Below are positions 5,292-29,733 of a stretch of DNA of 45,570 nt, one piece after another; position 1 is the stretch's first letter, and each line of letters begins with the position of its first letter. The stretch is from Patescibacteria group bacterium (GTDB taxonomy: Bacteria > Patescibacteriota > Minisyncoccia > Phycocordibacterales > PALSA-1337): assembly GCA_040388415.1 (NCBI GenBank), contig JAZKBV010000003.1, positions 1-45,570 of the forward strand, read 5' to 3'. Below the pieces are notes generated by a model, which was not told the origin of the DNA, did not search any database, and saw nothing but the letters and a program-made list of their open reading frames with translations. The translations under genes were made by a program, and so were the position numbers.

Positions 5292-5381
5292 TGGCGGAGA
5301 GAGTGGGATTCGAACCCACGGTTCCCGTAAGGGAACGGCGGTTTAGTAAACCGCTGCCTTAAACCACTCAGCCATCTCTCC
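5292..5381 (-). tRNA. tRNA-Ser with ACU anticodon
   Basis: GGAGAGA acceptor strand, GCGGT-TT ACT AA-ACCGC anticodon arm, long variable arm GTTCCC/GGGAAC, G73, encoded CCA. Confidence 0.93.
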
Positions 5382-5481: not shown

Positions 5482-5568
5482 GGAACCGTGGTGGAGTGGT
5501 CTAACATACCTCTTTGCTAAAGAGGCAGGCCTTAACGGGCCTCGAGGGTTCGAATCCCTCCGGTTCCG
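5482..5568 (+). tRNA. tRNA-Ser(GCU)
   Basis: GGAACCG/CGGTTCC acceptor stem, CCTCT-TT GCT AA-AGAGG, long variable arm, GAGGG-TTCGAAT-CCCTC, G73. Confidence 0.95.
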
Positions 5569-5598
5569 CAATGAACGAACGTAGTGAGTGAGTAAGTT

Positions 5599-26831: not shown

Positions 26832-27521
26832 ATGGCTGATAAAAAAGAAAAAAAGGAGATTGAAGTAGCTGGCCTCGAAATCGGCGCCCTTATACTGCTC
26901 ATCGTGCTCGTTGCTGCCTGGGCCTCTATCTCTGAGTATTTGCAAGTGCTTCTCAATGCGTTCGGCATCCCTCATGCTCTCGATGTAGTCACAAAGTATA
27001 CTGGCGTATACTCGCCGACTGTCGCTCTCTATGCAAAAAAAATATTGAGCATCTGCATAGCCCTCGCTTTTCCTGTGGCGCTCTTCTTCTTGGTAGGTAT
27101 TATCTATTGTGTCGAGCAACTCAAGCATATCCGCAAAAAAGAAGCAGAGAAGTATGATCTCAAAGTTGAACCTGCTTATGAAGAGGGAGTCAAAGCTGAC
27201 CGCGTCCTTGCTGAGCGTTGGGAGCGCGTTCAAACGCATGTCAGTTCAGAGAATCCAAATGACTGGCGCCAAGCGATCATGGAGGCGGATGTCATGCTCG
27301 ACGATGTTCTCACCACTCTTGGATATCAGGGCGAAGGCATCGGCGAAAAGCTCAAGAGAGTGGAAAAAGGGGATATGCATACCCTCCAAGATGCTTGGGA
27401 TGCGCATCTCGTGCGCAATAAAATCGCTCATGAAGGATCAGATTTTGCACTCACAAAATATGAAGCACAACGCGTTATCAACCAATATAAAAAGGTTTTT
27501 GAGGAATTCTACTATATTTAG
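26832..27521 (+). CDS. conserved hypothetical membrane protein
   Basis: 2 TM helices then WRQAIMEAD..GEKLK..AWDAHLVRNKIAH (RxxxxH motif). Confidence 0.8.
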   Translation: MADKKEKKEIEVAGLEIGALILLIVLVAAWASISEYLQVLLNAFGIPHALDVVTKYTGVYSPTVALYAKKILSICIALAFPVALFFLVGIIYCVEQLKHIRKKEAEKYDLKVEPAYEEGVKADRVLAERWERVQTHVSSENPNDWRQAIMEADVMLDDVLTTLGYQGEGIGEKLKRVEKGDMHTLQDAWDAHLVRNKIAHEGSDFALTKYEAQRVINQYKKVFEEFYYI

Positions 27522-27930: not shown

Positions 27931-27933
27931 CAG

Positions 27934-28116
27934 AAAAAATCCCCTTTAGGGGATTTTTTGCGCCCGAGCAAGCCAATAGTTTGGCTTGCGTGTGGGACTC
28001 GAACGCCGGAGCGATGTTTCGTGTGGCAACACGAAACCGCGAGGCGGTGCCCAACCCGAACGAGGCGGGTAGCCGAGTGAGAGGTGCGGGTGAGTCCCCG
28101 TAGGGGAAGAGTCCCA
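27934..28116 (+). repeat. structured tRNA 3'-trailer element (Asp copy)
   Basis: Hairpin 27934-27959, then antisense copy of the tRNA 3' end (GCGCCCG 27960-27966, GTGGGACTCGAAC 27992-28004) split by hairpin GCAAGCCAA/TTGGCTTGC; further hairpins; TCCCC-GTA-GGGGA then GAGTCCCA. Confidence 0.7.
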
Positions 28117-28135
28117 GTTGTTGTACAATACCTCT

Positions 28136-28894
28136 ATGAAAATACTTCTTATTTTTGGAGCGATAGTCGCTGTGGTGGTTCTAGCATTTGCTCCTATTAT
28201 CCCCGTTAGTGTCGAAAAGTTACCTGAACACACTTTGTTCAACTTCCAGCGCGTCGGTGGCATTGCTGGTTTCAATGACAATATCTCTGTCGACTATGGT
28301 GGCAATGTCTTCAAGACAGACAGAAGTGTCGGTAAGCTCGATGATACACAACTCGCTGCACTCAATGCCTATATTTCAGATAAAAAATACACTGCAGACG
28401 TTACTTCGTTCATTGATTTGATAAAATCGAAAGTACAGAAACCAGAATCGTATCCAGATATGATGACTGTGTTGGTGCGCATCCAAAACGGCTCAAAGAC
28501 GGTCAAGGTGCTTCAAGATACATTTATCAACGACTTGGTCGCGCAACTCACTGAGCTGATTAACACCGGTCCGACGATCAGTGCAATTAATCCATCGAGT
28601 GCTCATATAGGAGATCGTGTCGAAATCGACGGAACACATTTTAGCGGTTTTGAAGGTGATAAGTACGCTTGGATGGAAAACTCGGCCACTGGCGTGAAAG
28701 GTATTATTTACAATGATGTCGGCTCGACTGATAGTTTGATCAAGTTCACGTTGAAAGATAAATACTGTACGGCAGATACATCCTACTCAGGAAAGTCGTG
28801 TCCGTCGTATCTGACTATCGTTCCTGGGGAGTATAACGTTTTTGTATACCCTTGGGGACGAATGAGTAACAAGATGAAGTTCATCGTCGAGTGA
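28136..28894 (+). CDS. secreted/anchored protein with a C-terminal IPT/TIG-like domain
   Basis: Hydrophobic N-terminus; PTISAINPSSAHIGDRVEIDGTHF...PGEYNVFV...SN. Confidence 0.75.
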   Translation: MKILLIFGAIVAVVVLAFAPIIPVSVEKLPEHTLFNFQRVGGIAGFNDNISVDYGGNVFKTDRSVGKLDDTQLAALNAYISDKKYTADVTSFIDLIKSKVQKPESYPDMMTVLVRIQNGSKTVKVLQDTFINDLVAQLTELINTGPTISAINPSSAHIGDRVEIDGTHFSGFEGDKYAWMENSATGVKGIIYNDVGSTDSLIKFTLKDKYCTADTSYSGKSCPSYLTIVPGEYNVFVYPWGRMSNKMKFIVE

Positions 28895-28923
28895 TTGAAA
28901 TAATCTCATAAATAGACTATTCT
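28895..28923 (+). promoter_or_regulatory. sigma70-type promoter for tRNA-Thr
   Basis: TTGAAA-N17-TATTCT. Confidence 0.55.
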
Positions 28924-28952
28924 TAGCACCACGCGAAGTAATTTGAAAATTC

Positions 28953-29228
28953 GCCGTTGTAGCTCAGTTGGTAGAGCACGCCATTGGTAGGTCGTAAGAC
29001 CCTGCCCACGTACTTGGTAACATATACGTGAATCCCGAATTACGGTTAAAGTCCTTTTGATTTCAAGAAGGATAAGACCGTGGCGTGAATCTTTTATTAT
29101 GTAGAAGATTTACGCCCGAACGACTGACAAGGGTTTCCATGCTTATGGAAAAAGATACAGTCTAGTCCTCCTGTAAAGAGAGGTGTAAACGAATGGCGAG
29201 GTCTCCGGTTCAATCCCGGACAACGGCT
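28953..29228 (+). tRNA. tRNA-Thr(GGU) interrupted by an intron (exons 28953-28988 and 29192-29228)
   Basis: Joined exons give a 73-nt cloverleaf: GCCGTTG/CAACGGC, CGCCA-TT GGT|AA-TGGCG, TCCGG-TTCAATC-CCGGA. Confidence 0.92.
28989..29191 (+). ncRNA. group I self-splicing intron, 203 nt, no internal ORF
   Basis: 5' exon ends in U paired to G in P1, intron ends in G; P4 TTACGGT/ACCGTGG, P7 GACTG/CAGTC within the S-like motif AAGATACAGTCTAG, P8 TTTCCAT/ATGGAAA, P9 with a GTAA loop. Confidence 0.9.
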
Positions 29229-29241
29229 CCCTTAAATATTT

Positions 29242-29270
29242 TTGACGATGTTTGGTAGATTGGATATACT
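29242..29270 (+). promoter_or_regulatory. promoter of the HNH gene (leaderless)
   Basis: TTGACG-N17-TATACT, with ATG 7 nt downstream. Confidence 0.7.
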
Positions 29271-29277
29271 CGACATC

Positions 29278-29733
29278 ATGCCAATGCCGAGGAAAAATAA
29301 AAATGTATGTCCAGTCTGTTCCACGATGCCAGAGCGTTCTAGGTATATGTATTGTAGCAATAAGTGCCAATTAGAATTTCAGCGTAGAAGATATATCGAG
29401 AAATGGAAATCGGGTGAGATAAGTGGCCTCAGTAATATTGGAACTGTGTCAGTAGTTGTAAAGGAATACTTGAGAAAGAAGTATGATAATAAGTGTGTAT
29501 TATGTGGGTGGTCGATAATGAACCTTAAAACTGGTATAGTTCCTTTGGTTGCAGATCATATTGATGGCAACTGGCGTAATAATGTTGAGAGTAATCTGAG
29601 GTTGCTCTGTCCCAACTGTGATTCTCTCACGCCAACATATGGAGGTTCCAATAAAGGATATGGGCGCGTTAATAGGGCAGTGAGCAAAAGAGTGTCAGAG
29701 GGACGTTTGTTATCAAGGGTCTTGCCAAATTAG
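29278..29733 (+). CDS. free-standing HNH endonuclease with an N-terminal Zn ribbon
   Basis: CPVC..CSNKC; CVLC..DHIDGNWRNN..NLRLLCPNCD; stop codon lies inside the next tRNA. Confidence 0.88.
   Translation: MPMPRKNKNVCPVCSTMPERSRYMYCSNKCQLEFQRRRYIEKWKSGEISGLSNIGTVSVVVKEYLRKKYDNKCVLCGWSIMNLKTGIVPLVADHIDGNWRNNVESNLRLLCPNCDSLTPTYGGSNKGYGRVNRAVSKRVSEGRLLSRVLPN

Follow-up and report, generated by a model that had tools for sequence, protein, structure and literature searches.

The only tRNA-Thr(GGU) gene in the genome of this Patescibacteria group bacterium is interrupted 3′ of anticodon base U36 by an insert of 203 nt, and with a probability of roughly 0.9 this insert is a genuine group I intron: ORF-less, compact, of the tRNA (IC3-like) type and, as we infer, self-splicing by the two-step guanosine route. 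The gene occupies 28953-29228 of the window (the whole stretch of DNA analysed here, which is the opening 45,570 bases of contig C3). The genome comprises 782,297 bases on 6 contigs, has a GC content of ~45% and is rated 99% complete. Phage origin was considered and rejected: a distant blastn comparison with 50,697 phage records gave nothing, and the window is chromosomal, part of a 782-kb genome whose relatives are Paceibacterota, Parcubacteria and Patescibacteria.

As the first-pass annotation of this DNA had anticipated, standard scanners pass the gene by. In the window, default ARAGORN reports 7 tRNAs and Rfam, at its gathering scores, 8 tRNA matches, with the split tRNA-Thr(GGU) in neither set. 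The tRNAscan-SE 2.0 paper, in its available part, describes that program as not designed for group I introns. When introns are allowed, ARAGORN places a tRNA-Thr(ggt) gene at [28953,29230] and gives it an intron of 203 nt at position 37, the same intron, at 36/37, that had been picked out from the letters.

Joining of the exons yields a 73-nt cloverleaf with acceptor stem GCCGTTG/CAACGGC, D stem GCTC/GAGC, T stem TCCGG/CCGGA and an anticodon arm whose stem is CGCCA/TGGCG and whose loop is TTGGTAA. The bases after the 3′ exon are CCC, hence the CCA of this tRNA is incompletely encoded. All 28 aligned copies from the family read ...GGT/intron...G/AATG, and since the first intron base is G, not A, in 9 of them, sliding of the borders by one base is excluded. 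The G that ends the insert, which had been remarked on from the sequence, recurs in every one of these copies and, once the exons are allowed to set the borders, in 26/26 copies from the order-level sample. The 5′ exon half has an identical or near-identical counterpart in each of the 20 intronless relatives fetched. These relatives all have an unbroken tRNA-Thr(GGU) gene with the joint GGT/AATG and the loop TTGGTAA (20/20), so the predicted ligation product exists at the DNA level. Their loci also hold, in 17 of the 20 cases, at least one of the tRNA genes that neighbour the split gene in the window (tRNA-Met, tRNA-Asp or tRNA-Thr(CGU)).

Table 1. Coordinates of the interrupted tRNA-Thr(GGU) gene and of the predicted elements of its intron (window positions).
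Feature	Position	Strand	Remarks
5′ exon, tRNA positions 1-36	28953-28988	+	ends in anticodon GGU; U-1 is 28988
Group I intron (very probable), 203 nt, ORF-less	28989-29191	+	ARAGORN intron option; model R1 189.6 bits; RF00028 21.7 bits
P1 hairpin GGU/AGGUC, L1 GUAA (28994-28997), GACC-C-UGCC	28986-29006	+	internal guide UGCC 29003-29006
P2 hairpin, 10 pairs (2 mismatched here), L2 GUAA 29017-29020	29007-29030	+	covariation
P3 5′ strand CCC	29034-29036	+	pairs with GGG 29131-29133; pseudoknot with P7
P4, ACGGU 29042-29046 with ACCGU 29077-29081	29042-29081	+	encloses J4/5, P5 and J5/4; RNAalifold
J4/5 UAAAG, P5 29052-29072, J5/4 UAAG	within 29042-29081	+	RNAalifold finds P5
P6 hairpin, long here (15 pairs in the single-sequence fold)	29082-29116	+	4/5 basal pairs with compensatory changes
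J6/7 CGAAC, P7 5′ strand GACUG (29122-29126), J7/3 ACAA	29117-29130	+	conservation
P3 3′ strand GGG	29131-29133	+	partner of CCC 29034-29036
P8 hairpin	29134-29151	+	contains CC:GG step (putative L2 receptor); 7/7 pairs with compensatory changes
J8/7 AAGAUA and P7 3′ strand CAGUC	29152-29162	+	RF00028 aligns here to consensus AAGAUAUAGUC
P9.0, GU 29165-29166 with AC 29189-29190	29165-29190	+	encloses P9
P9 hairpin, L9 GUAA 29173-29176	29167-29183	+	5/6 pairs with compensatory changes
Terminal G (omega G), last intron base	29191	+	G in 28/28 family copies
3′ exon, A37 to discriminator U	29192-29228	+	begins AATGG; 37 nt

The group I plan is present, with P3-P9 in canonical order, a P3/P7 pseudoknot and P4-P6 and P3-P8 domains, and P1-P9 account for all segments of the intron. 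P1 forms as it was originally drawn, with the last exon U opposite G: its pairs are G-C, G-C, U28988.G29004 and A-U, then comes a bulged C and then GGUC/GACC. Among the 28 family copies, the U.G wobble is kept in 27 and the flanking G-C pairs in 28 and 27, and the fourth pair is A-U in 19, G-U in 8 and G-C in 1. P2 carries compensatory changes in 8/10 pairs among 28 sequences and in 10/10 among 57. In P5 all five pairs do so, and its CC:GG step, apart from these, is near-invariant (55/57 for each pair). At the other extreme P4 is unchanged in 57/57 sequences, and in P7 99.6% of cells across the 57 copies form pairs, with a change in one sequence only. P3 is C-G in all 57 at its first two pairs, with C-G in 54, U-G in 2 and U-A in 1 at the third, and, being nearly invariant, it gives scant covariation evidence. 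The joining segments are similarly fixed among the 57 copies (J6/7 CGAAC in 57, J7/3 ACAA in 55, J8/7 AAGAUA in 54). P9.0 does vary: its first pair is G-C in 44 of the 57, A-U in 9 and G-U in 2, and its second is U-A in 41, C-G in 12 and U-G in 2. A convincing P10 could not be drawn, the most that is visible by eye being a pair of A29192 with U29003.

Comparative support for these helices comes from two alignments. The first, of 28 family copies including that of the window, was made with MAFFT without structural input, and the structure was drawn by hand and then scored; two copies cut by contig ends (L027 and L031) and 7 weaker matches for which no locus was returned are omitted from it. Standard pairs fill 96.3% of its 2143 cells, as against 33-43% with the 3′ partners slid by 1-3 columns, and both-side changes occur in 30/77 pairs, values reached by 0/500 shuffles. 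P2, P5, P6, P8 (6/7) and P9 covary. Compensatory changes are also carried by the exon stems (acceptor, anticodon and T) across relatives. The second alignment has 57 copies (the family and an even sample of the order) fitted to model R1, a covariance model built from 27 introns with 185 positions and 49 pairs, and it leans towards that model. Here 93.0% of cells pair compared with 34-47% when slid, and 37/49 pairs, P9.0 included, have compensatory changes. From P3, P4 and P7, which are essentially invariant in both sets, there is no covariation evidence.

RNAalifold, given the intron-only alignment and no other help, finds P2, P4, P5, P6, P7, P8 and P9, and the fold of the single sequence has the same seven helices, with a minimum free energy of −69.8 kcal/mol compared with −43.95 ± 4.11 for 200 shuffles (z = −6.29, none as good). 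The U-A/A-U pairs that RNAalifold places between columns 216-217 and 247-248 were dropped in favour of P9.0, which covaries. It is the compensatory changes in the 28 and the 57 copies, this unaided fold and the covariation between L2 and P8 described below that support the helices, and they bear out the earlier statement that P2, P4-P6 and P7-P9 can be paired.

The check that had been proposed with a covariance model came out differently for the general and the specific model. RF00028 gives 21.7 bits (E 0.0023 in a search of 481 nt) against a gathering cut-off of 50, a score that would pass at the 20-bit working threshold of Williams (2020). Its local alignment sets AAGAUACAGUCUAG and the next hairpin on the J8/7-P7-P9 part of the model and skips most of the core, and the sub-threshold score is read as a limit of the model. 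R1, in turn, scores the window copy at 189.6 bits within a family range of 155-205 and, in the window as in the genome at large, matches only the intron at 28989-29191.

Loop and receptor change together in a way that points to tertiary contacts. When L2 is GUAA or GCAA, the P8 step is CC:GG in 38/42 copies; with GUGA it is CU:AG (2/2), and with GAAA it is a step other than CC:GG (13/13). Costa and Michel reportedly found GUAA to go with CC:GG and GUGA with CU:AG. From these covarying sequences we infer that L2 GUAA docks on the CC:GG step of P8. L9 GUAA probably docks in like manner on the CC:GG step of P5, and for this contact the sign is conservation only, L9 being a GNRA loop in 33/57 copies and the P5 step near-invariant as given above. 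GNRA clamps of L2 on P8 and of L9 on P5, set on a P1-P9 core without peripheral domains, are the architecture of the IC3 tRNA introns, for example that of Azoarcus. Natural RNAs make GNRA contacts of two main classes, and the pairing of GYRA loops with helical receptors is one of them, according to the available part of PMC7913685.

In the splicing route proposed, exon bases G34-G35-U36 of the folded pre-tRNA would pair with the guide UGCC to form P1, with the U.G wobble at the splice site. Free guanosine held in P7 would attack 3′ of U28988, after which the terminal G29191, placed by the 2-bp P9.0, would occupy the same site in P7. Attack by the 5′ exon after G29191 would then join GGU to AAUGG and restore the 7-nt loop UUGGUAA. 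Throughout, the compact core would be clamped by the contact of L2 GUAA with the P8 CC:GG step and probably by that of L9 GUAA with the P5 CC:GG step.

How the 3′ splice site might be handled without P10 is suggested by a further complementarity. P1 loop bases C-G-U/Y (28993-28995) are complementary to the last three bases of the intron, A-C-G/R-Y-G (29189-29191), the terminal G included. The same tail bases form P9.0, so that the two pairings compete. Across the 57 copies the pairing of L1 with the tail is made in 83.3% of cells and has both-side changes in 10 cells, a weaker showing than that of P9.0. There are also concerted changes of all three partners, from CGU/AGU/AACG to CGC/AGC/AGCG in six copies and to CAU/AAU/AAUG in one (L040). 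Alternation between the L1-tail and P9.0 pairings at the 3′ splice site is a speculative reading of these sequences and on balance unlikely. Were it true, it would be a device for choosing that site or for ordering the two steps, and we know of no comparable L1-tail device in other group I introns.

The need for splicing follows from the gene complement. Apart from the split gene there are 39 conventional tRNA genes in the genome, and those for threonine have the anticodons UGU and CGU only. Among 287 ORFs with 300 codons or more, ACU (29.7%) and ACC (20.8%) together make up 5247 of 10385 threonine codons. This 99%-complete genome has no other GGU gene, and the split one must therefore be spliced. 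A search of the genome for the tRNA-intron endonuclease (PF01974) and for RtcB (PF01139) found neither, and control genomes gave matches. The sole GGU gene, the use of ACU and ACC, the covariation in the exons and the absence of these two proteins together make self-splicing the working explanation.

Self-splicing need not mean splicing unaided. Dependence on a protein helper, whether a chaperone or a maturase-like protein, for efficient folding or splicing would be compatible with a genuine ribozyme, and the short P3 (3 bp) and missing P10 would be in keeping with it. The intron is without an ORF, though, the HNH-like neighbour described below has homologues in only 7 of 58 intron-bearing loci (and in 0/20 intronless loci), and two tetraloop-receptor clamps are present in the intron. 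Such a pair of clamps is typical of self-sufficient compact ribozymes, and a helper of this kind seems quite unlikely.

Less room is left for the view that the group I intron has decayed and lost the ability to splice, the gene being a pseudogene and ACC and ACU being read by tRNA-Thr(UGU). In some very small genomes a single U34 tRNA does read a four-codon box, a relative with two U-to-G changes, in P7 and P9.0, indicates that members of the family may be damaged (L026, below), and the metatranscriptome contigs with the spliced joint cannot be assigned to this organism. Against this, the window copy agrees with every invariant column of the core and its R1 score sits inside the family range; its exons show conservation, and three of their stems carry compensatory changes; and separate UGU and CGU genes have been kept in a genome where ACC alone is a fifth of threonine codons (20.8%). 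Decay is accordingly judged very improbable. That the insert is no ribozyme at all, being a protein-spliced tRNA intron of archaeal or eukaryal type, a group II intron or a small transposable insertion, is scarcely credible: the ARAGORN intron mode is blind to the type of intron, but the insert lies at 36/37 where the canonical protein-spliced site is 37/38, splicing endonuclease and RtcB ligase are absent from a 99%-complete genome by searches with positive controls, 203 nt is far below group II size, and helices and junctions fit the group I plan with covariation.

The contigs just mentioned come from public RNA data. Nine RNA runs shared 5-7% of sampled words, and four metatranscriptomes (X1, X2, X3 and X8) were examined. 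The joint 28988>29192, with 203 nt skipped, occurs in one contig of X1 (depth 2), two of X2 (depth 69.9) and one of X3 (depth 73.6), and is absent from X8. Contigs bearing the joint cover the conserved exons only, the flanks of this organism being uncovered in all four runs, and intronless relatives exist as DNA; for these reasons the joint is not assignable to this gene. Contigs from soil, wastewater and freshwater metatranscriptomes hold intron-bearing relatives, for example one of 270 nt with 20 differences. Intron variants are thus present in RNA libraries, with DNA carry-over a possibility.

The intron is common among relatives and confined to one site. When the element was compared by BLAST with the family's 164 genomes (163 besides its own), it was found at full length and 65-87% identity in at least 36 of the 163, and exon halves that abut at the same locus, with no intron, were found in at least 40. 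Across the order, sampled evenly over many families, R1 has a match in 29 of 150 other genomes, 26 of them strong (99.7-189 bits), and all 26 strong copies are in tRNA-Thr(GGU) at 36/37. ARAGORN labels 16 of these as Thr and 10 as Arg or His, the latter as the result of a border shifted by 1-3 nt. The three weak matches (26-39 bits) are outside tRNA genes. Further copies in the genome and other host tRNAs were considered and rejected, R1 having a single site in the genome and all 26 strong order matches being in tRNA-Thr(GGU). From its presence in many genomes of the family and the order, always in this gene, the intron lineage is common and bound to a single tRNA site, and it is either old or mobile.

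Family copies range in size from 169 to 266 nt. In the smallest (L032:1537-1705), P5, P6 and P8 are reduced to minimal hairpins, and this copy, if active, is a very small natural group I ribozyme. The largest (L025:1537-1802) has ~78 extra nt in P9. A third (L026:1537-1716) has two U-to-G changes at otherwise invariant sites, one breaking a pair of P7 and one a pair of P9.0, so that it reads CAGGCUAGGCC where others have CAGUCUAGUCC; it may be a crippled copy.

Between tRNA-Thr(GGU) and tRNA-Thr(CGU), and overlapping the start of the latter, is an ORF of 163 aa (29242-29733, + strand) with a weak match to HNH_3 (18 bits, E 0.0023). A search that started from the HNH-like protein, and was thereby unbiased, covered the family and the order sample. 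Close homologues, of at least 57% identity, are always placed between the two tRNA-Thr genes. They abut the 5′ end of tRNA-Thr(CGU), or lie no more than ~50 nt from it, in 8/9 family loci and 9/9 order-sample loci. The tRNA-Thr(GGU) beside them has the intron in 7 of the 9 family loci and is intronless in 2, while in the order sample it has the intron in 3 of 9, is intronless in 4 and is not in the locus in 2. Distant homologues (~45%) adjoin an intron-free tRNA-Thr(UGU) in 21/21 family and 8/10 order loci. Collaborative homing of intron and HNH-like gene is therefore rejected: the gene is tied to tRNA-Thr flanks and not to the intron, and its enrichment in the family is confounded by kinship. 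By its sequence and placing, the product looks like a free-standing nuclease family of tRNA-Thr flanks, independent of the intron.

On the other side of the split gene, the gap from tRNA-Asp to tRNA-Thr(GGU) is 1021 nt (27932-28952), compared with 10 to ~280 nt in several intronless relatives. Within it lies an ORF of 258 aa (28118-28894, + strand) with a weak match to TIG (19.5 bits, below cut-off). Beside the tRNA-Met pair is another, of 229 aa (26832-27521, + strand), with sub-threshold matches to a Swt1-like HEPN (18 bits) and DUF7832. The tRNA cluster is an insertion-prone spot.

Several other features of the tRNA complement were recorded. Two divergent tRNA-Ser genes, found by both ARAGORN and Rfam, lie at 5292-5381 (− strand) and 5482-5569 (+ strand), with the anticodons ACU (unusual in having A at the wobble position) and GCU. 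The genome has Arg(GCG) instead of Arg(ACG), Gln(CUG) only with no Gln(UUG), and two CAU genes where three are usual. An 81-nt 'tRNA-Ala(ggc)' at C1:1837-1917 becomes, in the intron mode of ARAGORN, a Cys(aca) gene interrupted by an intron of 4 nt. Group I introns in rRNA are common in CPR bacteria, and a sub-threshold RF00028 match (32.8 bits) inside the 23S rRNA gene, at G000:C6:30830-31068 on the − strand (locus L001), is probably one of these.

Introns of subgroup IC3 are defined by a place in the tRNA anticodon loop, a size of ~200-250 nt, the lack of P2.1, P5abc and P7.1/7.2, and GNRA clamps of L2 with P8 and L9 with P5. Location and size fit here (anticodon loop at 36/37, 203 nt, none of the P2.1, P5abc or P7.1/7.2 extensions), and so do the clamps, by covariation for L2/P8 and by conservation only for L9-P5. 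The Azoarcus intron, of ~205 nt, has L2-P8 and L9-P5 contacts. Like the present one, the introns of Azoarcus tRNA-Ile(CAU) and Agrobacterium tRNA-Arg(CCU), of the classes Ile2.5Ug and Arg.5Ug of Williams (2020), follow the third anticodon base (loop position 5), are preceded by U and end in G, are ~200 nt long and ORF-less, and consist of P1-P9 without large peripheral domains and with GNRA loops on P2 and P9, a likeness by description and not by comparison of sequence or model. They differ from it in host, which here is tRNA-Thr(GGU) of Patescibacteria, and in that P1 here is lengthened by 4 bp and closed by a GUAA loop of its own and P10 is absent. The group I intron of cyanobacterial and plastid tRNA-Leu(UAA) (Leu.3Ug) is likewise compact, lies in the anticodon loop and goes undetected by tRNA finders, but its insertion point is inside the anticodon (loop position 3), in another tRNA and phylum. 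In the present intron the receptors are simple CC:GG steps in a helix and not the internal-loop 'IC3 motif' of IC3 introns, as the available portion of the literature on that motif describes it.

Threonine tRNA is not a classical host, as was said at the outset of this work: the four classical classes listed by Williams (2020, bioRxiv 10.1101/2020.01.27.920355), all marked IC3 in the intron database cited there, are Leu.3Ug, Arg.5Ug, fMet.2Ug and Ile2.5Ug. That study raised the number of classes to 21, with 17 new, and put the number of split tRNA genes in metagenomic assemblies of unnamed phyla at 0.49 per genome. Under its naming rule the present intron (UUGGU/a...g/AA) is 'Thr.5Ug', for tRNA-Thr, loop base 5, U at −1 and a terminal G. 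A literature search to which Table 1, Fig. 3 and the supplements of Williams (2020), the places of the 17 class names, were external found no description of a tRNA-Thr group I intron. Some tRNAs in circularised, mostly CPR, genomes have group I introns according to the available part of Lui et al. (2021). The rarity implied by the first-pass annotation was therefore too high, this family being widespread in the order and CPR tRNA group I introns being already in print. A 2025 preprint by Nakagawa et al. is said, going by its title, to concern tRNA introns of Patescibacteria, which would be the same kind of element in the same phylum. With the same intron at the same site in many related genomes, this one counts as one more clean example and not as a new kind of element, and it leaves knowledge of group I introns as such unchanged.

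Its significance is for decoding and for the family itself. Standard annotation leaves the genome without a reader of ACC and ACU, and does likewise for at least 36 of the 163 other family genomes and for 26 of the 150 sampled from the order. Such a gap could pass for loss of a tRNA or for unusual decoding in reduced CPR genomes. In this family nature has also provided a size series of very small group I ribozymes, from 169 to 266 nt. The family has clean covariation of helices and textbook covariation of loop and receptor and is for that reason useful for studies of minimal ribozymes and of folding. With the intron present in some and absent from other close relatives at one and the same locus, the gain and loss of an ORF-less intron become tractable.
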